Positions 28,283 through 48,501 are shown, counted from the stretch's first letter. The stretch: DNA of 64,000 nucleotides from a virus (IMGVR_UViG_3300029286_001711), one strand, 5' to 3'. The notes: generated by a model not told the origin, from the sequence alone. Numbers and translations are program-made.

Positions 28283-28626
28283 GATATAAAGAAGGGGAGG
28301 AAGTTTCATTTAAAGTTTTATCACCAATTGATGAATCCGTCAATGGGAAAGTGGTGGTAGCAATTCCAGATGGAATACTTAAATGGGAAGAATATGGTGA
28401 ACCGTATTATTTAGTTGAATACCGTGAAGGTTGGGATTACCATTTAATGGTAATGGATGAATTAATAGGTTTAATAGGGGAAGATAATATATCTAAACTA
28501 GAAGATGAAAAAAAATATTGGTTTGTTCGTGAAAAAAACATTGTTGGTAAGTGGGATGGAAAACGGACAATACCAGAGTTAATGAATTTTAGGTTATTAA
28601 AATATAACTTTAAGAAAAATTCTTAA
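28279..28626 (+). CDS. hypothetical, SH3-like
   Basis: MRYKEGEEVSFK; ends PELMNFRLLKYNFKKNS. Confidence 0.6.
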   Translation: MRYKEGEEVSFKVLSPIDESVNGKVVVAIPDGILKWEEYGEPYYLVEYREGWDYHLMVMDELIGLIGEDNISKLEDEKKYWFVREKNIVGKWDGKRTIPELMNFRLLKYNFKKNS

Positions 28627-29573
28627 TCGTCTAACTTGTTCCAAACATCACCAGTATAGAGTTTCCAGACACCCCTTTCTAGGTGATTTAATACTGATTG
28701 TAAATTGTAAGTGGTACTTTGGTTTTTACCGTTATGAATCCACGATACACCAATAATCGGTCTTCCTTTAAAATCTTCTTTTATTGAATCTATTGTGTAA
28801 ACAATAAAACTACCCACAGAATCTTCATCAGCAAGTGTAAATTCTAGTCCTAATAAACTTTTTGGATCTTCCATTTTATTTTCATTAATATTTTTTCGGC
28901 CTATAAAATCTGACCATATAATATGTATTGGTTTACCTAGCTTATTACTTACTGATACACCTAAAGAATCATGATAAGGCCAACTAGCTGAACGTGTTAG
29001 TGTTTGATCTTCAATATTTTCAGGCCAGATAGATTGTATAGACCTTATCCCTTTAGTTTTTTCAATCTTCGTACCTTGTTCACCCCATCTAAATCCTTGT
29101 TTGAATAACCATTTTTGTATTTCAATGAAGTCTTCATCGGTATCAAAATCAATATGCCAAGGCTTACCTTTTAAACCGTCATACCCATTAATAACATCTT
29201 TTGCCCATTCAAAATCATCTTCAGATTCGTATAGTTTATCAAAAGCTTGATTAACATCTGGGATGACACTATAACCATCAAGCATTCTATATCCGTTACC
29301 TTCAAACCATTCAAGCCTATCATTTAAGTTATCATTATCTGTACCCTCACGATAATCGTATAGTGTGAACTGGGTTATATAGTTATCGTATATTCTAATA
29401 TATCCAATACTATCTTCAGTATTAACCATGATGTCTCTTATGTAATCATAACTTTTATAGTTTTTACGTTCATTACTATCAAACAATAAATCAATAATTT
29501 TAATACCCTCATTACCAGATAGTGGTGGGTTGAAAGTTAATATTGTATCTCTATCGAAAAAGGCAGATATCAT
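28623..29573 (-). CDS. linker-joined multidomain protein A (3 modules)
   Basis: ATG 29573 after TATTTAT; AFDKLYESEDDFEWAKD and NINEN junctions; ends WNKLDD. Confidence 0.8.
   Translation of the reverse strand: MISAFFDRDTILTFNPPLSGNEGIKIIDLLFDSNERKNYKSYDYIRDIMVNTEDSIGYIRIYDNYITQFTLYDYREGTDNDNLNDRLEWFEGNGYRMLDGYSVIPDVNQAFDKLYESEDDFEWAKDVINGYDGLKGKPWHIDFDTDEDFIEIQKWLFKQGFRWGEQGTKIEKTKGIRSIQSIWPENIEDQTLTRSASWPYHDSLGVSVSNKLGKPIHIIWSDFIGRKNINENKMEDPKSLLGLEFTLADEDSVGSFIVYTIDSIKEDFKGRPIIGVSWIHNGKNQSTTYNLQSVLNHLERGVWKLYTGDVWNKLDD
29198..29246 (-). repeat. ESED-EW linker copy
   Basis: Encodes AFDKLYESEDDFEWAK; 29203-29228 is identical to 43016-43041. Confidence 0.9.
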
Positions 29574-29583
29574 TAACAATAAA

Positions 29584-29606
29584 TATTCAGGAAAACGGAA
29601 AGGGGT
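29584..29606 (+). repeat. partial copy of the GC-rich element
   Basis: ATTCAGGAAAACGGAAAGGGGT, similar to 32421 ATTCAGGAAAAAGGGGGT. Confidence 0.5.
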
Positions 29607-29607
29607 G

Positions 29608-29868
29608 TTAGGTCATTTGAAACCTTTTGGAAAAAGAACATCTAGGTTCGATTTGGGGTTTACTAGATATTACGTAGAAAGAACCACATTCAATATGGTT
29701 ATAATTTAGATTGATACTATGTAATGATGAACCGTCAGAAGTTTGTGGTGGTGTAATCATATTAACTTTATTATACGTAAGGTTACCTTCACCTTCAACA
29801 TAAGATTCATCAGTGATTTCATAGGTACCACCAGACCAAAATATTATATCGCCAACACGTAATCTCAT
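29608..29868 (-). CDS. small SH3-like protein
   Basis: MRLRVGDIIF; ends EPRCSFSKRFQMT. Confidence 0.65.
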   Translation of the reverse strand: MRLRVGDIIFWSGGTYEITDESYVEGEGNLTYNKVNMITPPQTSDGSSLHSINLNYNHIECGSFYVISSKPQIEPRCSFSKRFQMT

Positions 29869-29870
29869 AA

Positions 29871-30116
29871 CTATACAAATTTGAATTTTAAAATATTACC
29901 AGCCCATTTAGTAGGGCTAACAGCACCGATGACATAGTCGTTCCACCTCTCAACTCTAAAACATTTTTGAGGAACCATTGGGTTTTCAGGAAATGTAAAC
30001 CAAACACGGTTACCAACACCTCTTTCTTCTATTCTAGTTACTAAAATTGTATTACCGTGAAATCTAGATGAAATAGATCCGTGATCATTTAAACGATATG
30101 TTTTACCTATCTCCAT
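29871..30116 (-). CDS. small SH3-like protein
   Basis: MEIGKTYRL; ends PTKWAGNILKFKFV. Confidence 0.65.
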   Translation of the reverse strand: MEIGKTYRLNDHGSISSRFHGNTILVTRIEERGVGNRVWFTFPENPMVPQKCFRVERWNDYVIGAVSPTKWAGNILKFKFV

Positions 30117-30328
30117 TATTTTATATTGAGAATATGTTTAATTAAATCAACATCAATTTCTTCGGGTCTGTGTTTAACCAACTCAACACGTTTAATTCCG
30201 ACACCTAATAAATCGTCAAAACGTCCAATAGACCAACGACCATTAACTAAGAAAGCATATAAATCATCAATCTCACCTTGTTCATTAACAATAACATAAG
30301 GTTCAACTGGTATCCACTCAAAACCCAT
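30116..30328 (-). CDS. hypothetical protein
   Basis: 70 aa, TAATG-coupled. Confidence 0.55.
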   Translation of the reverse strand: MGFEWIPVEPYVIVNEQGEIDDLYAFLVNGRWSIGRFDDLLGVGIKRVELVKHRPEEIDVDLIKHILNIK

Positions 30329-30477
30329 TTTAGGATATATTTGAAATCTTGTTCGGTAACCAAACGATATTCATTAAGGCGAATGCCATTTCTAACCTTC
30401 TGTAAAAACCCACCCAAAGTTAACCCCTTGGTTAATAAATGTTTGGGTATGGGCACCATAATCAATTCATCATTCAT
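30247..30477 (-). CDS. hypothetical protein
   Basis: ATG 30477 just after TATCTTTG (30483-90); overlaps the next ORF by about 80 nt. Confidence 0.4.
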   Translation of the reverse strand: MNDELIMVPIPKHLLTKGLTLGGFLQKVRNGIRLNEYRLVTEQDFKYILKWVLSGYQLNLMLLLMNKVRLMIYMLS

Positions 30478-30527
30478 ATATACAAAGATAAACAAATTAG
30501 AAGAAATAGATAAATAAAAATTAGGAA

Positions 30528-32402
30528 TTACTTGATAGGTTTAACACCTTGATTTGTCATAACAAAATGACCACCGTCTTTAACACGAATCATATGGTGA
30601 ACAGGTAAACTATCGGCGAAGTAGATATCTTCTGTCCATAACTTAGTATCATGATAACATTCATCACCATCATCTGGGATAACTAATATACCCTTTTTAT
30701 ATAGTTCATCAATACATTTTCGATCACCTTGGGGTTCTCCACTACGATCTTGACCAATTATACATTCCCTAACCCCAGGGATATTGAAATAATCCCATAA
30801 CGTGATGTTTTCTGGATAGTAATGTCCTCTTCTTAATACAACCCATAAATTTTGATCTACGTTAGATGGTGGGGTAATGTCTCTAGCCCATTCAAACTCG
30901 TCTTCTTCAGATTCTTTAAGATTTTCTTGGGGTGGGGTTATATATTTAACTCTTAATATACCATCAGTTCCAATTGTAGAGGAACTTACTTCGAAATAAT
31001 TACCAGTTGATGCGGTTCTCCAATTATTAGGTCTATCTGATAATGAAGCTAACCATTCTAATATTATATTGTCAATCTCACCCGTACCATTCCCACTATA
31101 GACATCTCTTTTATAGGTAACTCGGTCAACTTTAAATTCCTCACCAGTTAAATTAAACAATAATTTTTTACTATCCCTAACTTCACCGTATAAGGCAATC
31201 TCATCACCTTTTACTAATGCATCTTTTTCCCATAAATAACCTAAAGTGATTGGTGTGTTAATCAATTGTTTAGCCCATTCAAAATCTTCTTCAGATTCAT
31301 ATAGTTTACTAAAGGCATCATCCGAACTCATCTTAGAAAACTCAAATTGACCTCTACTTAAATAAACCCACCTACCAGTTTCATTTAATCTAATATGAAA
31401 TACTACACCAAAGGTACATTCACCAGGTTTTATTTCGGTAATCTTTTTATATATACCACTTCTACCACTAATATCTAAAATTGTTCCAATTTGTTCCCAT
31501 GATGGGACATAAACATTGTCACCAACATGAATTGTTCTTACACCTTCAGATTCAAATAATCTATTAAAATTATCAATAGTTGTTTTAATATTATCATCTT
31601 TAATAAAATAAAATCCCCTATTTAAATCACCAATGAAATCATCCCATTCTAAAGAACCCTTAGCACCCTCCCATTTAATCTTAAGTTCTTCACCGTCATC
31701 ATCAACTATAGTATAAAAAATTCCAGTCTCCTCATATTCTGTAGGGTGATAAAACTGTAACCCAAGAATATCTTGAGTTCTTAAGAAACTGTAATCATTT
31801 TCAGATTCATATAATTGTTTATACAGGGTATCAAAAATTTCAGAAGTGGTTGTACCGTTAACATAATCCCAACCATCATAAAGTTCCCAATAATTTGGTG
31901 TGTCTTTCATTTCATGTTCAGCATCATTACCAGTACCCCAAGTTACACTTTTCCTAGAATCAATAAAAATAGTATTTAATTTAATAGAGGAATAACTTCT
32001 ACTGTTGAGTTTATTACCACTACTCCATTTAATACCAGGAAACATTTCTGTCAACCTATCGTAAATCATTTCTTCCTGTTCAGAAGTGGGACGGGGATCG
32101 AATTTTAAAATTATACCCCTTTCTTTTACTGCGTCATTAGATTCATTAATTGTTTCTTTTATAACGGAAGAAATATCAACAGTAGGCAAATCAGTTATAA
32201 TCCAAGTATCATTTATATAATTAAGAAAAGTTTCCACATCATAGTCAGCCATATCTTCACCTTTATAACGATGTGGCCAGTCAATAAAGACATGACCATC
32301 ATAATATGAGTGAATAAGATAATCCCATTTACGTTCACCATCTCTCTTAAGACGAAAGTGTAAACCGATCAAATAGGGGATATCATCAATGGTGTATTTC
32401 AT
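30528..32402 (-). CDS. linker-joined multidomain protein B (6 modules)
   Basis: ATG 32402 after TATTTAT; junctions TINES, QLYESEND, RLFESEG, FSKLYESEEDFEWAK, LKESEEDEFEWAR. Confidence 0.85.
   Translation of the reverse strand: MKYTIDDIPYLIGLHFRLKRDGERKWDYLIHSYYDGHVFIDWPHRYKGEDMADYDVETFLNYINDTWIITDLPTVDISSVIKETINESNDAVKERGIILKFDPRPTSEQEEMIYDRLTEMFPGIKWSSGNKLNSRSYSSIKLNTIFIDSRKSVTWGTGNDAEHEMKDTPNYWELYDGWDYVNGTTTSEIFDTLYKQLYESENDYSFLRTQDILGLQFYHPTEYEETGIFYTIVDDDGEELKIKWEGAKGSLEWDDFIGDLNRGFYFIKDDNIKTTIDNFNRLFESEGVRTIHVGDNVYVPSWEQIGTILDISGRSGIYKKITEIKPGECTFGVVFHIRLNETGRWVYLSRGQFEFSKMSSDDAFSKLYESEEDFEWAKQLINTPITLGYLWEKDALVKGDEIALYGEVRDSKKLLFNLTGEEFKVDRVTYKRDVYSGNGTGEIDNIILEWLASLSDRPNNWRTASTGNYFEVSSSTIGTDGILRVKYITPPQENLKESEEDEFEWARDITPPSNVDQNLWVVLRRGHYYPENITLWDYFNIPGVRECIIGQDRSGEPQGDRKCIDELYKKGILVIPDDGDECYHDTKLWTEDIYFADSLPVHHMIRVKDGGHFVMTNQGVKPIK
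30885..30922 (-). repeat. ESED-EW linker copy
   Basis: NLKESEEDEFEWAR. Confidence 0.85.
31270..31318 (-). repeat. ESED-EW linker copy
   Basis: AFSKLYESEEDFEWAK; 25/26 nt match to 29203-29228. Confidence 0.9.
31785..31840 (-). repeat. degenerate ESED linker copy
   Basis: IFDTLYKQLYESENDYSF. Confidence 0.7.
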
Positions 32403-32425
32403 TAACAATAAATATCAGAAATTCA

Positions 32426-32490
32426 GGAAAAAGGGGGTCGGGGGAAAACGGTACGGGATCCGGCTATGCGAAAATCAATCCACATCATTG
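32426..32490 (+). repeat. GC-rich element, copy A
   Basis: AAGGGGGTCGGGGG...ACGGGATCCG...GAAA...ATCCACAT; inverted homologue at 37381-37447. Confidence 0.7.
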
Positions 32491-32511
32491 TATTCGTAGT
32501 GAACACACTAA

Positions 32512-32769
32512 TTAGGATAAGGAAAATTTCTTTAGATGTGTAATAGGTTCAATACCAACATAAGAGAAATCAATATGTTTAAGCACAGAACGACCATTAT
32601 GATACATAAAGAAAGGTTGTCCATCACCATTAAGGACGAGAGAACCATCCTGATTATAAACTTCCATCGTACTTCTTGTAAGGATTTTAAAAATCTTTCC
32701 CTTTAATTCTTCCTTCAAAGATGAAGGCCCACTTTTAAATCGATATGTCTTACCAATAAGAATATTCAT
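32512..32769 (-). CDS. small SH3-like protein
   Basis: IGKTYRFK; ends EPITHLKKFSLS. Confidence 0.65.
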   Translation of the reverse strand: MNILIGKTYRFKSGPSSLKEELKGKIFKILTRSTMEVYNQDGSLVLNGDGQPFFMYHNGRSVLKHIDFSYVGIEPITHLKKFSLS

Positions 32770-33057
32770 TTATTGTTTTTTTAAAAAGTTAAATATTTTA
32801 AATCGATAATTAGGGATTTTAGTCATAGCAATCCATTTACCTATTACACTTCCACATATATAAACAATAATAACAGTATAGTTACCATTTAAGAGACCCT
32901 CTATAGAAAAATAGGTTGTGGATATACTAACCAAATTAATAAAAACTGTATTTAAAAGTAATGGGATAATTTTATTCTCGTAAGTATATTTAATCTCATA
33001 AGTTTTAAAAATATTAAATAAGACCTGTGAGATGAATATGAAAATATAGGTTAACAT
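32770..33057 (-). CDS. small multi-TM membrane protein (DUF2179/DUF5698-like)
   Basis: Three hydrophobic helices, YICGSVIG. Confidence 0.55.
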   Translation of the reverse strand: MLTYIFIFISQVLFNIFKTYEIKYTYENKIIPLLLNTVFINLVSISTTYFSIEGLLNGNYTVIIVYICGSVIGKWIAMTKIPNYRFKIFNFLKKQ

Positions 33058-33063
33058 AATGAA

Positions 33064-33378
33064 TTAATGTCTAGGTACAACAATCTCAACCTTCTGCTTG
33101 GGATGAATGGTATGAACATACTTAATAAGATTATCCGTTTGAACCTCAAAACTAAGTTGGGTAATCGATAACTCTTGAATGGGTTTGGCATGTTTACCAT
33201 GAGAAGGATTTAACTCAAACTCGGAGTGGTCATAGACAGCAACAGATTTATTACTATAGTAAATGGTGTCGTTCTTGGTAGACCATTTATGGTATTCTTC
33301 ACAAGTTAATTTTCCCTTGTATACTGAACAAGAGACGATGGACATAATAAGTCCAATTGATATTACTATTTTTTTCAT
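33064..33378 (-). CDS. putative lipoprotein
   Basis: Likely start 33378: MKKIVISIGLIMSIVSC (lipobox-like Cys). Confidence 0.6.
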   Translation of the reverse strand: MKKIVISIGLIMSIVSCSVYKGKLTCEEYHKWSTKNDTIYYSNKSVAVYDHSEFELNPSHGKHAKPIQELSITQLSFEVQTDNLIKYVHTIHPKQKVEIVVPRH

Positions 33379-33379
33379 A

Positions 33380-33619
33380 TTATATAAATTTAAAAACCAA
33401 TTTGGAATCACCCTGAATAATATCAGGTGCTTCACCTTGAACATAGATATCCCAAAACCCCTTGGGTAGGGTACGAATACGTGAAGTACCTATAACTTGA
33501 TAATGTACATTGATACGACCAATACCCGTAAGGTAAAATTCCTTATTGGCAAGAAGACCTATCTTATGGTTAGGGTTTTCCACCCTCTCCCTGAACTTAT
33601 ATCGTTTACCTATCTCCAT
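33380..33619 (-). CDS. small SH3-like protein
   Basis: MEIGKRYKF; ends PDIIQGDSKLVFKFI. Confidence 0.65.
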   Translation of the reverse strand: MEIGKRYKFRERVENPNHKIGLLANKEFYLTGIGRINVHYQVIGTSRIRTLPKGFWDIYVQGEAPDIIQGDSKLVFKFI

Positions 33620-33622
33620 ATC

Positions 33623-33835
33623 TTAATGTGTACCGTTAGTTAATGAAACCCCATGACGAAATCCCATAATGAAATCCCTAATTTCTTCCTCATTCATTTT
33701 GGGGAGTATGGAACCTAAAATAAATCCGACCTCATTACCGACATCCGATAAATCACCATTCTGATAGGGAACCTTGGTTAACCCAGCACCTAACTTATTT
33801 AAGACCTCTTGAAACTCTATCTCACGTTCTTGCAT
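33623..33835 (-). CDS. hypothetical protein
   Basis: 70 aa; TATCTTTG at 33935-42 upstream. Confidence 0.6.
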   Translation of the reverse strand: MQEREIEFQEVLNKLGAGLTKVPYQNGDLSDVGNEVGFILGSILPKMNEEEIRDFIMGFRHGVSLTNGTH

Positions 33836-33959
33836 ATAGAAAAGACTATACTTAGTTTTAAATTCCTTATAGGTGGAATTGGATAACTCGAATGTTTTTT
33901 AGTCCCTTACATTCTGAACCATAAACCTTATATACAAAGATACGAAAATTATTTTATTG

Positions 33960-34180
33960 AGACCACTTTTTTGGGAAAAATTTTCCCGAAATTTTTTTTG
34001 GGTTTTTGACCCTATATAGAGTAGAACGCTATTTTCAGAAATTTTTACCCCAAAATTTTTTTACACTTTTGATCTGAAAACGTATCCGAACCCCCCTATT
34101 GGGGGCTCCCCACGTCCCGGCCAGGGGGAGGGGGGATATGCGCAGGGGGGAGGGGGCCATGGTATGGGGACCCTGCCAGC
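33960..34180. other. non-coding A/T-tract block followed by a GC/G-run island (G-quadruplex potential)
   Basis: GGGAAAA-A-TTTTCCC (33973-87), long A/T tracts, CCCCCC-TATT-GGGGG (34091-105), GGGGG-A-GGGGGG-ATATGCGCA-GGGGGG-A-GGGGG (34124-56). Confidence 0.75.
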
Positions 34181-34203
34181 CTGACATCTTGTCTGTATAT
34201 TTC

Positions 34204-34395
34204 TTACGTTCGCCTCAATAGTCTACTATTAATTGGTTTGGCCGATGTCCCAGTGAACTTCGGCTTATTGTACTGCTTCATCCTCTCCATAAACTCTTTC
34301 CTCTTCCTCTCTCTGTTGTCCATCACCTTCACGATGACAGCTGATACGATTAGGATTGTACCTACTGAGATTCCTACTATAACATTCGCTTCCAT
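34204..34395 (-). CDS. small single-TM protein
   Basis: VIVGISVGTILIVSAVIV plus basic tail; promoter TTTG/20 nt/TATCTTTG at 34412-43. Confidence 0.6.
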   Translation of the reverse strand: MEANVIVGISVGTILIVSAVIVKVMDNRERKRKEFMERMKQYNKPKFTGTSAKPINSRLLRRT

Positions 34396-34484
34396 ATTAT
34401 TATCTTTAATACAAAGATAAACAATTCATTTGATATAGACAAATCTATTTGCTATGTTGTTATGTCTATCTTAGTCGTTGGAGA

Positions 34485-34754
34485 TTACATAGTCGTTGAG
34501 AATGTTAATGGTCTTAAGTGTTTGATTGGTTCTATACTTTCTTCCCGTATAGATAGTACACCTCTCTCTAGCCAACCCTCTATGTCATCATCATAAACCC
34601 AGATGGTCTTACCTGATGTCTTACCCTTAAGGAAGTACTTGTGTCTAATGAATGGTACATCACCTAGTCTATAGACTCTATCAGCCACTTTGTCTATGAC
34701 GGTCATGTAGCTATCATGTCTCATGTTATTAAACCTATCTCCTATTTGATACAT
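34485..34754 (-). CDS. small SH3-like protein
   Basis: MYQIGDRF; ends EPIKHLRPLTFSTTM. Confidence 0.65.
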   Translation of the reverse strand: MYQIGDRFNNMRHDSYMTVIDKVADRVYRLGDVPFIRHKYFLKGKTSGKTIWVYDDDIEGWLERGVLSIREESIEPIKHLRPLTFSTTM

Positions 34755-34854
34755 TCTTCTTCCTGCTCTTCTTAATCTCGTTAACTAGTATGGTGATTGA
34801 TGTGACAGCCAATCCTATACCAAAACAAAACCCCATAACATCTTTTATAATCAT
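34735..34854 (-). CDS. 39 aa single-TM peptide
   Basis: My translation MIIKDVMGFCFGIGLAVTSITILVNEIKKSRKKNVSNRR; TATCTTTA just upstream. Confidence 0.45.
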   Translation of the reverse strand: MIIKDVMGFCFGIGLAVTSITILVNEIKKSRKKNVSNRR

Positions 34855-34997
34855 ACGATAAAGATAACCATTTTATTTGGTAGTGTCAAAAGTATTATGT
34901 ACATTTGTATTGTTGATGGCCATCAGCGTGAGAGTACCAGAGTCGATTGGAGACAGCGCCAAGTGTGCCTTATATTTTCCTATTGCGGAAAATATTA

Positions 34998-35029
34998 TTT
35001 GTTTTTTAATTATATTATCCGTATCTTTG
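34998..35029 (+). promoter_or_regulatory. Bacteroidota primary-sigma-type promoter
   Basis: TTTG (34998-35001), 20 nt spacer, TATCTTTG (35022-29). Confidence 0.7.
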
Positions 35030-35127
35030 TATTATATGGGAATGACATTTAGAGTCGATGATAAACAATCGTTTTAATGTTTTTTACACTTTGTTATACA
35101 CAGTATTAATTTATAAAATATAAACAA

Positions 35128-35295
35128 ATGGAATCAGTAAAAGAATTTATCACAGAAACAAAAACAGAAATAAAAAACGGTGTTAAATACACCACACATT
35201 TTGTTAATAGACCTATTAGACAAGGCGACACACAAGGTGGTTCTGTTGGTACGTGTATTAACGGAATAAACAAAACAACGGAAATCATAAATTAA
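35128..35295 (+). CDS. 55 aa hypothetical protein
   Basis: My translation MESVKEFITETKTEIKNGVKYTTHFVNRPIRQGDTQGG...; A-rich leader, downstream of the 35022 promoter. Confidence 0.5.
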   Translation: MESVKEFITETKTEIKNGVKYTTHFVNRPIRQGDTQGGSVGTCINGINKTTEIIN

Positions 35296-35535
35296 TATTG
35301 TGTATAACTACTAGATTAACGCAATAGACATAACAAATAAAAAAAATAACAAGGTGTATCAATGCCTACATATAAAAAAGTGAAGAAGAAGTATGTCAGC
35401 GTATTTAGGTGTTGTAGTTTCATTGACTTGGCTGGTTTTAATACTTTCCTACCAACTAGAAAACGTACACTTGTTATAAAAAATTAACCCATAAAAATAG
35501 TTGATAGTATAAAATAAAATTCTTATATTTGTAGT

Positions 35536-35634
35536 ATGGAAATATTAAGTTTAGAAACAGGAGTATTAGTAATGGTGGGCGTTTGTATCACCCTATTAGT
35601 ATGGCTATTACGCAGAGTCGCTAAGATGAGTTAA
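35536..35634 (+). CDS. 32 aa single-TM peptide
   Basis: MEILSLETGVLVMVGVCITLLVWLLRRVAKMS; TTG/20 nt/TATATTTG (35501-31) directly upstream. Confidence 0.5.
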   Translation: MEILSLETGVLVMVGVCITLLVWLLRRVAKMS

Positions 35635-35932
35635 ACATGGGTTACGGTACACCCTATTTTCCCACTCTCTGTCCCTTCTCTCCAGGGAATTCCCCATTCG
35701 CTGCCGTAAAATTTGAGTCATAACTCGCAAGAGGGTCAGTTCCCTTTACGGTTTCCTTACATAATCAACCATTTCCTATTGTCTTTTCTATACGTGGCAA
35801 TCTCTTCATATACACAATCCACCACTTTTCCCCATTATTTACCACCGAGTATTCCAAGATCGAGAAATTTATACTAATTGGCAGCGGGCGTTGCCTATTG
35901 TATGGATCTACATCTTCCACACATTTACTGAA

Positions 35933-36528: not shown

Positions 36529-36546
36529 AATACAAAGATAGGGAAT

Positions 36547-36771: not shown

Positions 36772-36773
36772 TT

Positions 36774-37264: not shown

Positions 37265-37267
37265 TTC

Positions 37268-39789: not shown

Positions 39790-39793
39790 ATTT

Positions 39794-40297: not shown

Positions 40298-40333
40298 ATT
40301 TAATTTTACTTAAAATTTTTGATACTGTCAAAC

Positions 40334-40360
40334 AAAAAACCCTGATGTTATTCAGGGTTC
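40334..40360 (-). terminator. intrinsic terminator
   Basis: Minus strand AACCCTGA-ATAACA-TCAGGGTTTTTT. Confidence 0.7.
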
Positions 40361-41079: not shown

Positions 41080-41774
41080 TATGAATTATGTTTTTGAAAA
41101 AAGTTCTTATTATTTCTGTTAATAAATGATTGAAACATTAATTTTATCATATACACTACACCCTTGTTTTTAAACCTTCTTGGGCTTGTGAATATGTGTT
41201 TGTCGATAATTTTAAATTTATTGGGTTTTACTTTTTTGGATAATAAATAATCTTCTGCGACTTTTATACTTTCATCAAAACCACCAAGTTTTTTAAATAT
41301 CTTTGTTTTAAATAACATAAAACCACCAAGACAAAATGGGGTTATTGGTTTAATTATTTTTTGTATAACATCGAATGATTTATATGTGTAATTATATTCA
41401 CCTGTTGTTGTTCTAACTTTTGTGGTTAATAAATGAAGTTTTTCTTTTTTCATTATATTAATTGTTTCTGTTAGTAAATTAAAATCTAAAATAAACATGT
41501 CTGCATCCAAAAATAAAACATAAGGAGTTGTTACATATTTAATACCATTATTTCTTGCAACTGAAGGTAGGCCACCTTGAATAATTTGTAAAATAAATTT
41601 ATCTTTTTCTCTTAATTCAAGTTCAACGGTTGTGTTATCCGTTGAAGAATCTGATACAATAACATTAACCCCCTCTATGTTATTTTGTTGGTTTAATAAA
41701 GATAATGTTGTGTCTATTATCTTAGATTCATTTTTACAAGGTATAACGATTGTTAGTAATTTTGAAAGTTCCAT
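41070..41774 (-). CDS. GT2 glycosyltransferase
   Basis: IVIPCKNE, DSSTD, ARNNG, FLDAD, AED; TATTTAT upstream. Confidence 0.88.
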   Translation of the reverse strand: MELSKLLTIVIPCKNESKIIDTTLSLLNQQNNIEGVNVIVSDSSTDNTTVELELREKDKFILQIIQGGLPSVARNNGIKYVTTPYVLFLDADMFILDFNLLTETINIMKKEKLHLLTTKVRTTTGEYNYTYKSFDVIQKIIKPITPFCLGGFMLFKTKIFKKLGGFDESIKVAEDYLLSKKVKPNKFKIIDKHIFTSPRRFKNKGVVYMIKLMFQSFINRNNKNFFQKHNSYWQ

Positions 41775-41813
41775 AATGATAAATATCTTTTAATATTTTC
41801 CTAATCAAATCTC

Positions 41814-42224
41814 TCATTTCATTTTACACCAATACTTACTTGGGATTAACTCTTCCGTAAACCATTTGAAGGAAACATCTTCGTAACCATTCTTATCAGC
41901 ATCTTCACTTTCAGGGTCTTCATAATCATAACACCTTGAGGATTCTATTGAATAGTCTTTAGCGTTGTAGGTTGTATTTTCAGGATCACAAGGTTTATAC
42001 TTAATAATAAGCCCACCTTTTTCATCGGGGATAATATCAGCAATTGTCAGAACGTATCTAGCATCTGTTGGTTGATAATCATCAGGAGATGGGTTGGTTT
42101 TCTGGGGATTATTATTATCAACAACATAGAAAACATCACCAATGTTAATGTTTAAACCTGATACTGCCTCTCTAGCCCATTCCAGGTCGTCGATTTCTTC
42201 TTTTATGATTTTTCTAATATCCAT
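41814..42224 (-). CDS. single-module member of the linker family
   Basis: MDIRKIIKEEIDDLEWARE (leader fused to the EW linker), then NIGDVFYV. Confidence 0.75.
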   Translation of the reverse strand: MDIRKIIKEEIDDLEWAREAVSGLNINIGDVFYVVDNNNPQKTNPSPDDYQPTDARYVLTIADIIPDEKGGLIIKYKPCDPENTTYNAKDYSIESSRCYDYEDPESEDADKNGYEDVSFKWFTEELIPSKYWCKMK

Positions 42225-42225
42225 T

Positions 42226-43611
42226 TTATTCTATAACAATAATATCTACCATATCTTCATTAATCCAATAAGGTAGGTCTAAAACATTATCAGTTAAACA
42301 CTCAACAAGTTGAGCACTCAGAACATCCTCATCGATATCCATACCAAAATTAAAACCAGCTTCACAATCAGAACCACTTCTCACCATCTGTTTAATTTTA
42401 CCTATTCTAAATACTTGTTTAAACCACCATTCAACATTACCATTAAATGAACACAAATCTAAGGATTCTTTAAAATAATCACTACCATTTGATTTTGGGA
42501 TAAGTTTAAATTTTAGTTTATCAAGATTTTTAGGGTTACTTTGTTTAAAGACATCCCAATAGTTTTCAACCCCAGAAACCAAATCTCTGGCCCATTCCAA
42601 TTCATCTTCTTGTTCTCTAATTTTACTAACTCTCTTCCTAGCTGGTCTATACCCGTCAGCATTAATTATAAAATGTTTACCATCTGATTTTCTCACCAGA
42701 TGTGAAATTCTTTCATCGTATTCATTAGTCTCCGTGTTATTGATTAGGTAACAAATATCACCGTTTTCTGGTGTCCCTAATGATGGTACTTGTTGATGTA
42801 AAAATAATGTCCCAACATCACCTTTAATGCCCTCACCCATTTCATATCTACGTGATAAATTATGATAATCTTCACTATCCCACCAATGTTTTCCATATTT
42901 CTGATTAAACTCTTCCATACCTGGAATTTTTACATTTAACATAAATTCTGTATAGGTCGGATAATAAGCCGCACTTCTGGTAACCACAACTTCTGGAAAT
43001 TTAGTTAGTTCCTTAGCCCATTCAAAATCATCTTCAGATTCATTTAGATTACTCTCCACAACTTTCCAAGCACCACTATTCAAAATCTTTAAAAGTTTGC
43101 CTATATCAAAAGGTGTACCTTTTGATGGGTATGAAGCCGGTAAGTTTGCTGGTAAAATATATACAACCCTATCTGTAACTTTTGTTATAACAGCTAATAT
43201 TGGTGAACCACCTGGTATTTTTGATGGTATTGAAAATTTCTGACCAACTTTAAGAAGATTGGTACTATCTAAGTCTTTAACCCAAGATAAATCATCTTCA
43301 GATTCATATAACTGGCCAAAGAAATCGGTATTTTGAATATCAGGTGGAATTAGAGTGAACCAATCTTCATAGTTTCGACCAACCACATCTTTTTGTACAG
43401 TAAATCTAGCAGTATGTTGACCACGATTTCTAACCCCTCCAATACTAATGATATCTTCTCCACGATTACCACCCCTAGATTCAAAGTTGGTAACTTCAAC
43501 ATAATCACCCACCTTTGGCCCAACACCTTCCGTATGGCAATACAAAAAATCTCCGACCTTGGGTACCGGCTTTAATGATTCTTTAATTATTTTACGGATA
43601 GAGTTTCTCAC
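42226..43611 (-). CDS. linker-joined multidomain protein C (4 modules)
   Basis: Likely GTG 43611 after TATTTAT; IRKIIKES leader; QLYESEDDLSWVK, LNESEDDFEWAK, IREQEDELEWAR. Confidence 0.85.
   Translation of the reverse strand: MRNSIRKIIKESLKPVPKVGDFLYCHTEGVGPKVGDYVEVTNFESRGGNRGEDIISIGGVRNRGQHTARFTVQKDVVGRNYEDWFTLIPPDIQNTDFFGQLYESEDDLSWVKDLDSTNLLKVGQKFSIPSKIPGGSPILAVITKVTDRVVYILPANLPASYPSKGTPFDIGKLLKILNSGAWKVVESNLNESEDDFEWAKELTKFPEVVVTRSAAYYPTYTEFMLNVKIPGMEEFNQKYGKHWWDSEDYHNLSRRYEMGEGIKGDVGTLFLHQQVPSLGTPENGDICYLINNTETNEYDERISHLVRKSDGKHFIINADGYRPARKRVSKIREQEDELEWARDLVSGVENYWDVFKQSNPKNLDKLKFKLIPKSNGSDYFKESLDLCSFNGNVEWWFKQVFRIGKIKQMVRSGSDCEAGFNFGMDIDEDVLSAQLVECLTDNVLDLPYWINEDMVDIIVIE
42587..42622 (-). 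repeat. ESED-EW linker copy
   Basis: KIREQEDELEWAR. Confidence 0.8.
43011..43050 (-). repeat. ESED-EW linker copy
   Basis: NLNESEDDFEWAKE; 26 nt identical to 29203-28. Confidence 0.9.
43275..43323 (-). repeat. ESED-EW linker copy
   Basis: FFGQLYESEDDLSWVKD. Confidence 0.85.
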
Positions 43612-43652
43612 GTTAATAAATATCCACATAAAAAAAGAAGAACACATCTCCT

Positions 43653-43925
43653 TTATTTTTTCATCCCTAAATATTCTTTAATTTTGTCTATATCATCTCG
43701 AGATAGGACACCTTTATTCTCAAGTGTTCTAAGTCTTGATGCAATGAATTCATTATTCTGAATGATTAACTCACTCATTTTAATAACGTGTTCTTCTAGA
43801 TGTTTTAATGTTTTATCCTTATCTTCTAATGCTTTTAATCGTTTATTATATTGAACTAAGGTAACGACTAGACCAACAATCATCACAAGAACTAAAAACC
43901 CTATTCCTACCCAAATGTCTTCCAT
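43653..43925 (-). CDS. single-TM coiled-coil protein
   Basis: WVGIGFLVLVMIVGLVVTLV followed by a coil. Confidence 0.65.
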   Translation of the reverse strand: MEDIWVGIGFLVLVMIVGLVVTLVQYNKRLKALEDKDKTLKHLEEHVIKMSELIIQNNEFIASRLRTLENKGVLSRDDIDKIKEYLGMKK

Positions 43926-43937
43926 TATATATAAATA

Positions 43938-44570
43938 TCAACCAATATTATTCTTCTTAATTTTATACTTCCCTATAAATGTTTCAATAAATTTTGCAGC
44001 GACTAATAATTTTAACACTGTCAAGATAAATGAAAATAGATTAGTTTTGGTGTTAAATTTTAAGACTAAAACATACCTATCACCTTCAATTACTGGGAGG
44101 GCTTCATGCCAAGATTTAATTGTATTAGCTCTAAATAACAACCCACAACCCCTTGGATAATCTTGTGGTGTGTATTTATATTTTAAAAAAGGTAAATTAG
44201 TTCCGCCACCTGTAAAATTATTGTTTAAATTTATGGGTAGACTTAAATAACTACCATCATAATGACAAGGCATATTCGATATTAAATTTTTATTGTATTT
44301 TATGATAAAGCTTTGATTTAACTTAAAATCACCAAATTTTTCAACAACTTTATTTATCAAATCTTGAATATGGACAGGTAATTCTGTTGTTTGCATTTCA
44401 TAGGCACTTAAATATAACCACCCATTTTCATTTGAAACTTTTAATTTATCGATATTATCTTCAATTGAGGATATTATCTCATCACACTCAATGTCACTAA
44501 AAACTCTAATGACAGAAAAATTCTTTTTACGTTTTAACCAATCTATTGGGTTATATTCCTCTATATCCAT
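43938..44570 (-). CDS. 2OG-Fe(II) oxygenase (prolyl/lysyl hydroxylase-like)
   Basis: FIIKY, HYD (HxD), FTGGGT, distal H in WHEALPV, and RYVLV. Confidence 0.85.
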   Translation of the reverse strand: MDIEEYNPIDWLKRKKNFSVIRVFSDIECDEIISSIEDNIDKLKVSNENGWLYLSAYEMQTTELPVHIQDLINKVVEKFGDFKLNQSFIIKYNKNLISNMPCHYDGSYLSLPINLNNNFTGGGTNLPFLKYKYTPQDYPRGCGLLFRANTIKSWHEALPVIEGDRYVLVLKFNTKTNLFSFILTVLKLLVAAKFIETFIGKYKIKKNNIG

Positions 44571-45418
44571 TTTATATTGATTTTATCTATTTGGTATAAT
44601 TCTTTATCAATATCATTGGTAATGTCATTAACTTCTTTCATTTTTTTCTTTTTTTCATCTTCAGACATTACCCCACGTTTACCCCTATTGATAGACATAT
44701 TTTTATTAAAATAATAGTAATATAATTCTTCCTTTATTATGTGTTCAGTTTTAATTAAATCTTTCTCATACATTTCAGTTATCCACTCTAAATCTTGATC
44801 TCTAGGTCTATCACTAAATTTTATTTTATTAACAATATCTCTTTTTATCGGTGTTACTGGGTGTGTATAAGTTGTTGTCTCAATTGTGAACCTTTTAACT
44901 AACGATAAGAAAGAAATCATAAAAAGGGTTTTAAAAAATCCACTACCGTCCCATTTCATAATAGGTATACTTCCTAATTTTAGTTTGAAATGAGATTTTA
45001 AATCCGTATTATGAGTGGTTTCTTCTAAAAAAAATAGGTTTAAAAAATTGACTGAATAATAACCCTTTTCTTTAGATATTCTCACTGGAACACTTTTTTT
45101 ATTTAGATTGTCATACCACCTTTTACCTATTGATATTTGGTCCACATTTTTTACTTCTATAACATCACAAATAAGTTTACAATAGTTTTCACTAACCATG
45201 TCGTCGTCATCTATTATAACGACATATCTACCTTTGGCTGTTTGATTTAAAACGTTTCTTTTTTCACCCAAACTTTTTTCAAAATCATCTTCGTAAATTA
45301 TGATTTCAATTTTATCCATTAAATTGTTAATAACGATTTGCTCTTGAAGGTTAAATAGTAACCTATTAAGATATTTCCTTCTTGGTGGTACTGTAGCTAT
45401 AAGTATGGATAATAACAT
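44561..45418 (-). CDS. GT-A fold glycosyltransferase
   Basis: LSILIAT, GEKRN, IIDDDD. Confidence 0.8.
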   Translation of the reverse strand: MLLSILIATVPPRRKYLNRLLFNLQEQIVINNLMDKIEIIIYEDDFEKSLGEKRNVLNQTAKGRYVVIIDDDDMVSENYCKLICDVIEVKNVDQISIGKRWYDNLNKKSVPVRISKEKGYYSVNFLNLFFLEETTHNTDLKSHFKLKLGSIPIMKWDGSGFFKTLFMISFLSLVKRFTIETTTYTHPVTPIKRDIVNKIKFSDRPRDQDLEWITEMYEKDLIKTEHIIKEELYYYYFNKNMSINRGKRGVMSEDEKKKKMKEVNDITNDIDKELYQIDKINIKWI

Positions 45419-45455
45419 ACTTAAGAATAGTTAGTGTGAGTGGAATTATAAAGGG

Positions 45456-46205
45456 TTAGAAAGGGTAGTCTGACTTATTAAAACTATTAACAATTAAATC
45501 ATTATCAGTGGGGAATTTATGTGGGTTTACCTCTATACAATCTTTTCCTCTTCCTATATTAATAGCTTCCCAACCACTAGGTCTTTCCCCTGGGTTTTTT
45601 AACCAAGAAAAATGAAAGCCATCATCGTAACGGTTTTCAACCTCAAAAGGTTCACTATTTAAAATTAATAAAATATCACCATCATCACCCTTGATTTCAC
45701 CACTTAGGGTGATTTGGTCGCCTTTCTCTAAATGTTTCCATACAGATTGTAATGTTATTTCTGATTCTAATGATTGTTTAGCCCAATCTAGTTCATCTTC
45801 GGATTCATATAATTTATTAAAAGCATCTTCAGTTGAGGGTGTGTTATGGAACTTACTAATGAAATCTCTATAAGGTATAAAAATGTAGTCTTGATTTATA
45901 AAACCATTTGGGTTTCCCCAAAAGATATGAGTACCTTGAGTGATATCAGTATCATAATAACCAGCACCAATACCTAAATCTCTACCCCTCATTAAGTAGT
46001 CTTCTATCACAATATCAATATCCGCATCAGTCCAATCCCTATTACTCTCAAGAGGTGAAGGAACCCCATTTACCCTGAAAAAATCAAGAACCATTTTAAT
46101 ATCTTCTTTTTTTGCTGATGGAGTAAAAATCACCATCTTTCCTAAAATAGGGTTAGTAGAGTCGACATATTCTTCCCTTAATATTTTACGGATGGAGTTT
46201 CTCAC
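45456..46205 (-). CDS. linker-joined multidomain protein D (2 modules)
   Basis: Likely GTG 46205; IRKILREE leader; AFNKLYESEDELDWAKQ. Confidence 0.8.
   Translation of the reverse strand: MRNSIRKILREEYVDSTNPILGKMVIFTPSAKKEDIKMVLDFFRVNGVPSPLESNRDWTDADIDIVIEDYLMRGRDLGIGAGYYDTDITQGTHIFWGNPNGFINQDYIFIPYRDFISKFHNTPSTEDAFNKLYESEDELDWAKQSLESEITLQSVWKHLEKGDQITLSGEIKGDDGDILLILNSEPFEVENRYDDGFHFSWLKNPGERPSGWEAINIGRGKDCIEVNPHKFPTDNDLIVNSFNKSDYPF
45777..45826 (-). repeat. ESED-EW linker copy
   Basis: AFNKLYESEDELDWAK. Confidence 0.88.
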
Positions 46206-46223
46206 ACTAATAAATATCCGCAT

Positions 46224-46249
46224 AAAAAAAGAGAGTCTAACTCTCTTTT
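46224..46249. terminator. intrinsic terminator
   Basis: AAAAGAGAG-TCTAA-CTCTCTTTT. Confidence 0.7.
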
Positions 46250-46251
46250 GA

Positions 46252-46614
46252 TTATTCTAAAATTACTACTACTTTACCTGACACTAATTTGGGTTGTAAA
46301 TCAGAGTTAGAAAACCCTAAGATTTTACTAAAGAAATTAACTACCTTATTAAACCCTTTTATTTCCCCCAATTCAACAAAGACCCCATTTTGTAATGGTA
46401 TATAATCTTCTTGTAGAACTATCGGTCTTAATACGTACTCACTAGACCATCTTGTTCTAGGTGTCCCAATCCAACCTAAATTTTTAAGGTCAATGAAAAT
46501 TGTGTTATCTTGTGATACAAAATTACCAGTATAAGCGACACCATTTACATTTACCACATTATTACACGGTTTAGTCTTGCAGGGTGTTAATATTAATTTA
46601 AATCTGGTTTTCAT
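46252..46614 (-). CDS. hypothetical protein
   Basis: 120 aa; TATCTTTG at 46620-27. Confidence 0.6.
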   Translation of the reverse strand: MKTRFKLILTPCKTKPCNNVVNVNGVAYTGNFVSQDNTIFIDLKNLGWIGTPRTRWSSEYVLRPIVLQEDYIPLQNGVFVELGEIKGFNKVVNFFSKILGFSNSDLQPKLVSGKVVVILE

Positions 46615-46650
46615 AACTACAAAGATAGTAAAATATTTTGAATATAAAAA

Positions 46651-47025
46651 TTATTCTGTTTCATAAATGTAGAAATCTATACCACATTCAACAAAAATTA
46701 AGATAGGTCTTTGGTGAGTATTAATTTGGAACTCTACGTTATCTTCTTGTTTTTTAATTAGATGTGTAGTTGCACTTAAACTTTTTAAAGTGGCAACATC
46801 ATAAACATTAATTCTAACTGTATCGACATAATGTGAATCAAATATTAAATGAACAAAATTACCGTCAAAATGATAAAGTAGTTTTTTCTTTCTAATTTGG
46901 TCTGATAATGAGGTAAAATGAAAATTAAGTTTAGGTTTCACAGTGTCCTTCGGACTAACTAAAGCCGAAAAAGACTTGAACCCAATAAGTAAAAATACTA
47001 ATAATATATATGATAATTTTCTCAT
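46651..47025 (-). CDS. secreted protein (signal peptide)
   Basis: Likely ATG 47025: MRKLSYILLVFLLIGFKSFSA. Confidence 0.6.
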   Translation of the reverse strand: MRKLSYILLVFLLIGFKSFSALVSPKDTVKPKLNFHFTSLSDQIRKKKLLYHFDGNFVHLIFDSHYVDTVRINVYDVATLKSLSATTHLIKKQEDNVEFQINTHQRPILIFVECGIDFYIYETE

Positions 47026-47026
47026 A

Positions 47027-47338
47027 TTAAAAAGGCATTTGTATATCATCATCTTCTACCCATGCATTACTACTTCTTACTGGTCTAACTGGTATTAAAT
47101 CCCCAAACTCATCGTGATAGTCACCGAATGGGTTTATTTCTGGGCTACTATATCTTCTTTGAGTGACTTTTTCTTCTGTTAAAATCTTAAACAACATACT
47201 TAGTTCAGAATTTGGTAGGACCCTTAGTTCAGAATAATTACTTTCCTTTAACATTCGCATGATAGCAACAATTTTCTTTGTCCTATCTTCAGTTGATTGG
47301 AATTCTATTTTAGGTATTTCACTTCTCTTCGGATCCAT
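47027..47338 (-). CDS. hypothetical protein
   Basis: 103 aa. Confidence 0.55.
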   Translation of the reverse strand: MDPKRSEIPKIEFQSTEDRTKKIVAIMRMLKESNYSELRVLPNSELSMLFKILTEEKVTQRRYSSPEINPFGDYHDEFGDLIPVRPVRSSNAWVEDDDIQMPF

Positions 47339-47358
47339 TATATTAAAACTTAATCAAA

Positions 47359-48501
47359 TTACTTAAGGGTATCAATAGTAACTATATAAAAATCCTTTAA
47401 AATTTGACTATCTTTAGCGAAATAAGAGTGAGCGGTTGTTACATTTAATAGTTTATAACCTTTATAGGTGTTACCTTCGATATCCATCGTCGTTCTTTCC
47501 CCTATTTCATATATAAACTTACCGTTTGATCTTCTAACAATCAAACCTGGTCTTAAATCTTCAGGACTTAACTTAATCAATGAATGACCACCCATTATTC
47601 TATTTAATTGGGACCTATCTATACCCTTTGGTAATCCCAAATCTTTAACCCAATCAAACTCGTCACCCTCTTGTTCGGTTAAATTATCAAAATTCATCAC
47701 TTGTTGATCCTTACCACTATAAATGTTAATAAATAAATCAACAGGAAACACAAATTCAAAAGTGTCGATTGAATTTTCTTCACAATCATCCCAACCACCC
47801 CACTGTAATACACCATCATGAGTTCCAAAATACATAACTATTCTACCTTTACTGGAATTCATTGCATTTTGGAACCAATCCTCATCAGGTGTTACTGATC
47901 CCGAATATTGTGATAGATAAGACATTAAAATATTTTTTAAATCATTAAATCTAAATACCGACTCAGGTTTAACTCTCCCATGTTTAACTCTCCTGTGTTT
48001 GTTTAAACTATCTCTACAAAATGTGATGGCAAATTCTGATGGTAATGTTTTAATTGAGTCTCTAGCCCACTCAAAATCATCTTCTTGTTCATATAGTTTA
48101 TCGAAAATATCTTCGACATTGGGTGTGTTTAGTAATTCACGACCGTCATAGAAGGCATCAAAGGTTTTCGAGACTGACCTTTCATTTTTATACCAGTTAA
48201 TAGTATCTTTTTTGGTTTGTAATTCATCGTCTGGGTTTTGCCAAGAATCTAAATCCCCACTAGGAGTGGTTTGAATCCACAGTAATCTCTGATCTTCACC
48301 CCAACGGTCATCCATTAAAGGTCTTGTAACTATATAACCATGTTTAAGGTTTTTAAGAAGATTTTCGAGTTGGTATATTTCATGTGCCTCAAGAGGTGGG
48401 TCAAAATAATAGACAGCATTAGGTTGTAGTGTACCTCTAGAGGCGAATTTCTCCAGAGCATTTCCTTTTACCTTTTTCCCGTCTTTTTTCTTTTTGGCCA
48501 T
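47359..48501 (-). CDS. linker-joined multidomain protein E (3 modules)
   Basis: TATTTAT upstream; IFDKLYEQEDDFEWARD and NFDNLTEQEGDEFDWVKD. Confidence 0.85.
   Translation of the reverse strand: MAKKKKDGKKVKGNALEKFASRGTLQPNAVYYFDPPLEAHEIYQLENLLKNLKHGYIVTRPLMDDRWGEDQRLLWIQTTPSGDLDSWQNPDDELQTKKDTINWYKNERSVSKTFDAFYDGRELLNTPNVEDIFDKLYEQEDDFEWARDSIKTLPSEFAITFCRDSLNKHRRVKHGRVKPESVFRFNDLKNILMSYLSQYSGSVTPDEDWFQNAMNSSKGRIVMYFGTHDGVLQWGGWDDCEENSIDTFEFVFPVDLFINIYSGKDQQVMNFDNLTEQEGDEFDWVKDLGLPKGIDRSQLNRIMGGHSLIKLSPEDLRPGLIVRRSNGKFIYEIGERTTMDIEGNTYKGYKLLNVTTAHSYFAKDSQILKDFYIVTIDTLK
47643..47694 (-). repeat. ESED-EW linker copy
   Basis: FDNLTEQEGDEFDWVK. Confidence 0.85.
48061..48110 (-). repeat. ESED-EW linker copy
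   Basis: IFDKLYEQEDDFEWAR. Confidence 0.9.

Follow-up and report, generated by a model that had tools for sequence, protein, structure and literature searches.

A 64,000-nucleotide (64-kb) stretch of DNA from an uncultured virus (IMGVR_UViG_3300029286_001711; the whole of this stretch is referred to below as the window) contains five minus-strand genes encoding polyproteins, in which small modules are joined by a conserved linker peptide with an acidic run and an invariant tryptophan. The acidic-Trp tag follows the motif L/I-x-E, which is the cutting rule of the T4 prohead protease gp21, and the phage encodes a protease of that family (S77). The most economical reading, to which we give about even odds, is that the polyproteins are head-loaded precursors that would be cut by the S77 protease at each junction, their modules travelling with the DNA. 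Packaging, cleavage, injection and an effector function are steps that we infer. The sequence-level findings are solid and broad, and the mechanism is plausible.

A conserved linker joins the modules of five polyproteins

The internal linker has the consensus [L/I]-x-E-(S/Q)-E-(D/E)-(D/E)-(F/L)-x-W-(A/V)-(K/R)-(D/E/Q). Translations and a six-frame scan located nine copies in the five genes: 28623 and 45456 have one each, 30528 and 47359 two each and 42226 three (genes are denoted by their first coordinate; see Table 1). An initial annotation, made from the sequence alone, had described five strings of modules joined by a shared linker, and this is confirmed; it had counted eight internal copies containing Trp where there are nine, and its module size of 70-130 aa was close to the 83-142 aa that we measure between junctions in the window. 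In two further genes (41814 and 59761) the tag lies directly behind a basic N-terminal leader, and there are degenerate junctions without Trp (LYESEND, LFESEG, INES and INEN); both observations had been made in the initial annotation. The hidden Markov model (HMM) of the linker that it had proposed was built, and matches exactly these 11 places (nine internal and two N-terminal) and none elsewhere in the window. Seven strict matches to the motif were observed, compared with none in 200 nucleotide shuffles of the window and with 0.0005 expected from 2000 residue shuffles of the five proteins.

Some of the copies are also very similar as DNA. The sequences at 29203-29228 and 43016-43041 are identical at 26 of 26 nt and a third copy at 31277 matches at 25 of 26, as first reported. 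This shared DNA is largely explained by AT-biased codon usage for identical peptides. Among the linkers, the same codon is used at 171 of 247 pairs of identical residues, where codon usage predicts 139, and silent differences between copies are frequent (GAT/GAC, GAA/GAG, GCT/GCA/GCC and AAA/AAG/AGA). Since the silent positions differ and the excess of shared codons is only modest, selection acts on the linker peptide.

The linker is widespread and follows a sequence rule

A linker profile of 34 positions, built from 27 linkers (profile A1), was searched against 1.84 billion representative proteins. It matched 147 clusters at E ≤ 1e-3, and 31 at E ≤ 1e-10. These 147 clusters are less than 50% identical to each other, yet the peptide is conserved. 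Most contain 2-8 linker stretches, and the proteins are up to 1328 aa in length. An 1154-aa open reading frame (ORF) on IMG/VR contig L001 has several W-linkers (six in the linker alignment) together with W-less copies, while contig L002 encodes, near Gp23-like genes, a stand-alone protein in which an 11-aa leader is followed by SEDDFEWAKD.

The tag is preceded by L/I/M/V-x-Glu in 375 of 380 linkers from 150 proteins. In these 375, position P3 is Leu in 189 and Ile in 154 (i.e. one or the other in 343), the rest being Met or Val; P2 can be any residue (Asn in 181), P1 is Glu, and P1′ is Ser in 319. The Trp is invariant in the 380 linkers, with Phe or Leu two residues before it, and the acidic run varies from one to five residues. 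The T4-like cut motif that had been pointed out before the tag is thus a general rule, and the corresponding protease is encoded. Stand-alone proteins hardly ever begin with the tag itself: a leader comes first, and in 36 of 51 N-terminal copies the putative cut would be after residue 9-11. Examples in the window of a short leader ending in L/I-x-E are 41814, 42226, 45456 and 59761. The junctions without Trp retain [L/I]-N-E-S, observed 36 times compared with 2.7 expected inside segments (about 13-fold), so that the half of the linker resembling a protease site appears more indispensable than the tag.

Modules are shared and exchanged at the linkers

Cutting the proteins at their junctions gave about 600 segments of at least 30 aa, with a median length of 114 aa and an interquartile range of 96-129. 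They sort into 88 multi-member families and 172 singletons, with 2-10 segments per protein, and the next module after any common family comes from many different families. Within the window, family 0 is common to the fifth module of 30528 and the last of 45456, and family 2 to the last module of 30528 and the third main module (fourth segment) of 42226; a companion claim of the initial annotation, that modules are shared between these genes, therefore holds. The body of the stand-alone protein 41814 (family 12) is found as an internal unit of polyproteins P0036, P0040, P0047 and P0055.

The modules are acidic, with a median pI of 4.65 and 90% below 6, and have no transmembrane segments or hydrophobic spans. 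A scan of about 20 linker proteins with Pfam gave only NUDIX (in P0085) and MIB_HERC2 (in P0021), with no family in the five window polyproteins, and Pfam and PHROGs applied to the seven motif-bearing window proteins gave only a sub-threshold SH3-type match and one weak PHROG. Soluble, acidic and almost all without Pfam families, the modules are typical of the 'dark matter' of phage counter-defence.

The relatives of gene 42226 (P0002-P0008) differ from it by whole modules. P0002 lacks the second module, P0003 runs from ..LNES straight into an FNPP-type module, and P0004, P0005 and P0008 have other combinations. The DNA of the window and that of contig L017, which carries P0002, are 77% identical over the end of module 1 and then 91%; the jump occurs at exactly residue 201 of 42226, with which the second linker begins. 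The one linker that P0002 has can be aligned with each of the two window linkers that flank the 83-aa module missing from P0002. Moreover, linker DNA is the sole nucleotide similarity to two unrelated L017 genes (37-45 nt at 84-89%). This is the pattern that recombination between linker repeats would give. Module order thus differs between relatives, with breakpoints in the linkers. The proposal that the linker doubles as a recombination hub stands as far as the position of the breakpoints is concerned, and is not supported as regards conservation at the level of DNA, where silent sites vary.

We note two further features of the module strings. The largest polyproteins (L001 7907-11371, L013 10001-13174 and P0009-P0049) have a common N-terminus of about 40 aa (MPY.. 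..KKYLAALHANV) and a C-terminal HEIEH domain, and in at least three contigs (L001, L013 and L014) they immediately follow a GP88 / L5_gp82 fusion gene. They look like a conserved 'anchor' with variable inner modules. In P0132, a relative of 45456, two tandem linkers about 12 residues apart occupy residues ~135-165, suggestive of a 'mini-module' or of a scar left when the module between them was deleted.

Structure predictions

AlphaFold2 was applied to a 21-row alignment of gene 45456 (alignment A4). The C-terminal module is predicted with a predicted local distance difference test (pLDDT) score of ~90, whereas linker residues 131-152 are at ~50 or below and form two short helices. In a fold search the C-terminal module has a weak resemblance to SH3, FeoA and Tudor-like barrels. 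A second domain, of about 215 aa, is C-terminal in 16 of ~150 proteins and has an invariant H-E-x-x-H with a downstream His/Glu; its model is alpha/beta, with a pLDDT of 86.5. As the SH3-like module and the HExxH domain differ, the linker joins different folds, and the spacer that follows the tag varies in length. The initial annotation had taken the linker to be an exposed junction and not an integral element of one repeated fold, and the low-confidence junction in the model, between modules of differing fold, agrees with this.

The sole whole-domain structural matches of the HExxH domain are the catalytic domains of zinc aminopeptidases and oligopeptidases, and these are weak (Z 4.3-4.6). 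Its nearest Pfam-bearing neighbours in the atlas are LPD23 and SprT-like clusters. It has no sequence match in the PDB and no similarity to a SprT-like protein encoded among the head genes of the phage, and it is found neither in the window (including the five polyproteins) nor in ~32 kb of adjacent genome.

The phage, its head genes and its probable host

The polyproteins belong to an uncultured T4-type jumbo phage of 201-212 kb, and proteins identical to those of the window are found on 201-kb and 212-kb contigs. The head genes were reached by walking upstream from the window start, from contig to contig. Genes for Terminase_6N (the large terminase), Portal_T4, Peptidase_S77 and the Gp23 capsid protein lie about 10-25 kb upstream of the window, in a cluster that also encodes a scaffold-like protein, which is extremely acidic. 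The protease matches Pfam S77 at 6e-29 and T4 gp21 (PDB 5JBL) at 2e-19, with the His in ELNHP, the Ser in SSRG and a conserved Asp all aligned. The capsid protein carries ..VLINE/STQAAGGQ.. (a slash marks a putative cut here and below), and I-N-E/S is the commonest spelling in the linkers. Its Ser aligns with residue 11 of mature T4-type gp23*, about ten residues from the T4 maturation cut. The scaffold-like protein starts ..ALLE/A.

The sequence TATTTAT precedes the genes for the protease, the portal and the terminase as well as three of the five polyprotein genes (28623, 30528 and 47359), a distribution that would be compatible with co-expression of the polyproteins and head assembly.

The ends of the window appear cellular, carrying genes for a ClpB-like protein, for an ATP-dependent ligase and for a CHU_C protein of the type IX secretion system (T9SS). 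A reading of the region as a poly-immunity or host island, based on the ClpB and T9SS genes, was dropped because the contig turned out to be phage. The nearest deposited capsid proteins are ~40% identical and come from Flavobacterium phage immuto, Microcystis phage Mel-JY01 and an uncultured 484-kb phage (LR756508); the linker is absent from all three, and megablast and tblastn against 50,697 deposited phages gave no relative of the polyproteins. The host is probably a member of the Bacteroidota, as suggested by the CHU_C gene and the affinity to a Flavobacterium phage.

Several other observations concern these genes. Many genes have a motif (G/A)ATATTTAT 4-40 nt ahead of their start codon. 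In the window it precedes 28623, 30528, 47359, 58183, 58861, 26143, 3805, 43653 and 59761 among others, and on contig L009 the genes for the S77 protease, portal, large terminase (TerL), SprT-like and CCA-adding proteins among others. It is a candidate late or middle promoter of the phage, and is often so near the ATG that the mRNAs would be leaderless. Also on L009, a 646-aa CCA-adding (PolyA_pol) enzyme (10001-11941, plus strand) has the leader and an ENDFDW tag, followed by an SH3-like segment, and a 145-aa protein adjoining the capsid gene (3982-4419, minus strand) comprises a leader, a Cys4 ribbon, a W-linker and a module; by these two genes the tag system extends into the head-gene cluster and to an enzyme. 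On L002, Gp23-like pieces at 5867-6864 (record G002:C1 6771-7564) lie in adjacent short ORFs of 100 and 232 aa, with the segments of the Gp23 profile out of order (304-361, then 134-197, then 4-59). This capsid-like gene could be fragmented or rearranged, or an assembly artefact.

A model for the loading and cleavage of the polyproteins

If the polyproteins are head-loaded precursors, the basic amphipathic N-terminal leader ending in I/L-x-E would act like the capsid-targeting sequence of T4, drawing the entire precursor into the prohead's scaffold core. The gp21-family serine protease would cut each [L/I]-x-E/(S/Q) junction on the C-terminal side of its Glu, and the freed modules (~85-140 aa) would be retained in the head until they pass into the host together with the DNA. 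The majority would start with the acidic-Trp tag S-E-D-D-F-E-W-A-K-D, which might provide a prime-side exosite for the protease, or a handle for retention or ejection. With the same ~30-45 nt of coding sequence on either side of each module, recombination at the linkers could add, delete and reorder modules, and convert internal modules into stand-alone leader-bearing genes and back. The outcome would be a combinatorial repertoire, as expected for anti-defence or host-takeover proteins.

If the junctions are indeed cut in the head, one late gene would load several independent proteins in fixed stoichiometry, and the common linker would allow the set of cargo to evolve by simple in-frame recombination. 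The T4 internal-protein paradigm of one leader and one protein would then be extended to a polyprotein format, and hundreds of unannotated small modules would become candidate injected counter-defence or host-takeover proteins. The linker profile offers a means of finding such cargo in metagenomes, with 147 clusters so far. More tentatively, and with some doubt, we suggest a 'cargo grammar' in which one peptide of ~20 aa would be at once a cut site for the capsid protease, the source of an acidic-Trp handle common to all released proteins (for their retention, their ejection or the docking of a partner) and an in-frame recombination joint, by which small proteins join a head-delivered anti-defence library.

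In favour of loading and cleavage in the head are the T4-type head genes with their S77 protease, the L/I-x-E rule of the junctions, the I-N-E/S of the capsid protein, the length of the leaders, the retention of [L/I]-N-E-S where Trp is lost, the low-confidence junction in the model of 45456, the exchange of modules at linkers, the distribution of TATTTAT and the soluble, acidic character of the modules. A number of points weigh against it. The conserved acidic-Trp tag on the prime side is without precedent at known gp21 sites. The leader is also carried by enzymes, i.e. the CCA-adding enzyme and the SprT-like protein, the packaging of which is not obviously needed, so that it could have another role. 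T4 IPII and IPIII are mostly basic, unlike the highly acidic cargo here. L/I-x-E is short and is not clearly depleted within modules (ratio 0.97, z -1.0, compared with 1.15 for L/I-x-D, with cuts at W-linkers only; the ratio of 0.90 obtained when degenerate junctions are also cut out reflects a step that biases the count), and the specificity of cleavage would therefore need to depend on accessibility. Lastly, the structural view of the junction comes from one linker and one module, as the N-terminal module of 45456 was poorly predicted with two alignment rows. A complex prediction for S77 protease residues 35-235 with the linker alignment gave a score of 0.01, without controls, and weighs neither way.

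Alternative explanations

The strongest conservation in the linker is not confined to the L/I-x-E but includes the invariant Trp and the acidic run, and the model suggests a disordered junction containing short helices, much like a linear motif. Both would fit if the proteins were not cut at all, being multi-domain proteins in which the linker is a flexible spacer bearing a short linear motif (the acidic-aromatic D-D-F-E-W), offered once in each module to a common partner. The ClpB/ClpC-like AAA+ protein encoded at 352-2877 in the same window is a Clp-type unfoldase that might be this partner, as might the scaffold or a host protein, and the presence of the leader or tag on cytoplasmic-type enzymes would be accommodated. 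Nevertheless we think it unlikely that the proteins remain intact, because the junctions without Trp keep [L/I]-N-E-S at 13-fold over expectation, and the tag of stand-alone proteins is practically never N-terminal, always being preceded by a leader ending in L/I-x-E. Furthermore the modules are interchangeable between separate genes and internal units, which speaks for their acting as independent proteins.

A different protease could also be responsible. Iyer et al. predict processing of 'polyvalent proteins' by zincin-like metallopeptidases (PMC5512222), and here the C-terminal HExxH domain of the largest members is confidently folded in its model and matches only zinc peptidases over its whole length, with LPD23 and SprT-like neighbours. 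A separate candidate is the SprT-like protein, the gene for which carries the same leader and lies between those for the protease and the scaffold. Such an enzyme might act either inside the capsid or once the proteins have been injected, cutting on the N-terminal side of the conserved Phe/Leu or Trp. We consider this distinctly improbable. The HExxH domain is missing from the five polyproteins, the window and the adjacent genome; its structural matches are below the level that distinguishes folds, and neither a PDB sequence nor the SprT-like protein resembles it. The regularity of L/I-x-E/S fits the rule of the serine protease and not the typical P1′ preference of zincins. It is very improbable indeed that the linker is kept mainly as a DNA recombination site with no function in the protein, by analogy with the PeSL cassettes of T4-type phages. 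The breakpoints inside linkers, the linker DNA as the sole similarity between otherwise unrelated genes and the slight excess of shared codons are all in keeping with such a site, but silent positions vary freely between copies, it is the peptide and not the DNA that is conserved across the 147 clusters, the residue preferences are specific to position (L/I at P3, E at P1, S at P1′ and the invariant W), and the indels in the acidic run are multiples of a codon.

Relationship to known systems

In the searched literature we found neither this linker nor any polyprotein that contains it. The initial annotation had stated that no description of the system was known; this holds for the linker and its polyproteins, and does not hold for the logic, for which the T4 leaders on hypervariable internal proteins (Ips), the multiply cleaved head proteins of phiKZ and SPN3US and the polyvalent proteins are precedents. 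If head-loaded and cut, the polyproteins would add to both T4 internal proteins and polyvalent proteins.

The T4 protease gp21 cuts after L/I-x-E, trimming the 10-19-aa capsid-targeting leaders of internal proteins and removing 65 residues from gp23, and the ten-residue leader is enough to load foreign proteins into the head (PMC9026906, PMC9958956). T-even phages have many Ip genes with only the leader in common, and Ip1, Ip2 and Ip3 are injected, each blocking a different GmrSD restriction enzyme (PMC12373910, PMC3012670). The system here resembles IPI, IPII, IPIII and Alt in having a T4-type head, a gp21-family protease and a leader ending in L/I-x-E on unrelated small proteins, and resembles the internal proteins in its hypervariable gene repertoire sharing only the leader. 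The putative cut after residue 9-11 of most stand-alone proteins corresponds to the 10-aa capsid-targeting sequence of T4. The T4 internal proteins are packaged, trimmed, injected and active against restriction, whereas the present system is known from sequence alone; they are single modules cut once, whereas up to eight modules are chained here; and they have no counterpart to the acidic-Trp tag after the cut. The leader here (MK.LI+KILKE) differs by eye from the T4 capsid-targeting leader (MKTYQEFIAE). In T4, exchange of the P1 Glu for Asp prevents processing while targeting persists. Mullaney and Black reportedly described the capsid-targeting sequence and gp21 processing of T4 internal proteins in 1996.

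The polyvalent proteins of Iyer, Burroughs, Anand, de Souza and Aravind (2017) contain 2-15 disparate domains, and are predicted to be delivered with the DNA and processed by peptidases (PMC5512222). The likeness lies in several disparate domains per polypeptide in many architectures (2-10 segments here), in the C-terminal HExxH domain or NUDIX domain of some members and, if the model holds, in delivery with the DNA and processing by a peptidase. Polyvalent proteins have large enzymatic domains and no common linker, a word absent from PMC5512222, whereas the modules here are small, mostly non-enzymatic and defined by one conserved junction peptide; of disparate enzymatic domains, the Pfam scan of ~20 proteins gave nothing beyond the NUDIX and MIB_HERC2 matches.

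In phiKZ, 201phi2-1 and SPN3US the inner-body or ejection proteins are cut C-terminal to Glu, sometimes at several sites, by gp175/gp245, a diverged homologue of gp21 (PMC9026906, PMC5694885, PMC10052503). The motif there is S/A-x-E, compared with L/I-x-E here, and cleavage mostly removes propeptides, with no conserved linker and no combinatorial module order. No Pfam family, and so no PF12699-type paralog, was found in the window polyproteins, and the junctions do not follow S/A-x-E. The exchange of cassettes has a parallel in the PeSLs of T4-type hyperplastic regions, short conserved sequences flanking accessory ORFs that allow insertion, deletion and swapping (Arbiol et al. 2010, PMC2839356). 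PeSLs lie between genes and consist of promoter and terminator elements, whereas the repeated element here is coding sequence within one frame, and exchange must therefore keep both frame and peptide.

Features of the window

Table 1. Polyprotein genes, their junctions and related stand-alone genes in the window. HMM, match to the linker model, with E value where available.
Feature	Position	Strand	Description
Polyprotein gene A	28623-29579	-	316 aa from ATG at 29573; FNPP-type, family-5 and C-terminal modules
Gene A W-linker	29151-29246	-	..FDKLYE/SEDDFEWAKD..; HMM, E 2.7e-14
Gene A degenerate W-less junction	28875-28889	-	..NINEN..
Polyprotein gene B	30528-32408	-	624 aa from ATG at 32402; six segments, the last two of family 0 (SH3-like) and family 2
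Gene B W-linker 1	31221-31319	-	HMM, E 6e-14
Gene B W-linker 2	30846-30929	-	..NLKE/SEEDEFEWARD..; HMM, E 2e-9
Gene B degenerate junction	31785-31814	-	LYESENDYSF
Gene B other degenerate junctions	~31539-31559, ~32133-32150	-	LFESEG, INESND respectively
Stand-alone single-module protein	41814-42224	-	136 aa; leader MDIRKIIKE, tag EIDDLEWARE, family-12 module
Polyprotein gene C	42226-43647	-	473 aa; leader, then modules of families 6, 16, 2 and 54
Gene C W-linker 1	43231-43326	-	HMM
Gene C W-linker 2	42973-43056	-	HMM; 91% DNA-identity block to relative L017 starts exactly here
Gene C W-linker 3	42541-42630	-	..KIRE/QEDELEWARD..; HMM
Polyprotein gene D	45456-46223	-	255 aa; leader, family-87 module, linker, family-0 SH3-like module
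Gene D W-linker	45732-45827	-	HMM; AlphaFold pLDDT ~50 or below, next module ~90
Polyprotein gene E	47359-48501	-	380 aa; three modules
Gene E W-linker 1	48022-48111	-	HMM
Gene E W-linker 2	47617-47694	-	..NLTE/QEGDEFDWVKD..; HMM
Stand-alone gene	57383-58159	-	258 aa; body 41% identical to the module behind the W-linker in P0141
Stand-alone protein	59761-60597	+	278 aa; long leader ending IIKE, tag EGENFDWIGD (59800-59859)

Four paralogs on the minus strand of the window (12686-14389, 23379-25274, 26143-27489 and 50387-51940) start with leaders of the type ..LL(N/T/E)E(G/N)R. A common domain of 23379, 26143 and 50387 matches phrog_17056 and phrog_28193, while 12686 matched no PHROG; 50387 also matches gene 45 of the 440-kb Salicola phage SCTP-2.

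At one end of the window (352-2877, plus strand) is the gene for the 841-aa ClpB/ClpC-like double-AAA+ unfoldase, with Clp_N and UVR motifs. It adjoins a glucosaminidase gene and is unusual in a phage; it is conceivable as a partner for tagged proteins. At the other end (60627-63767, minus strand) a protein of 1046 aa has GEVED and PKD domains and a C-terminal CHU_C type IX secretion sorting domain, which hints at a host among the Bacteroidota and at use of the host's T9SS by a phage protein.

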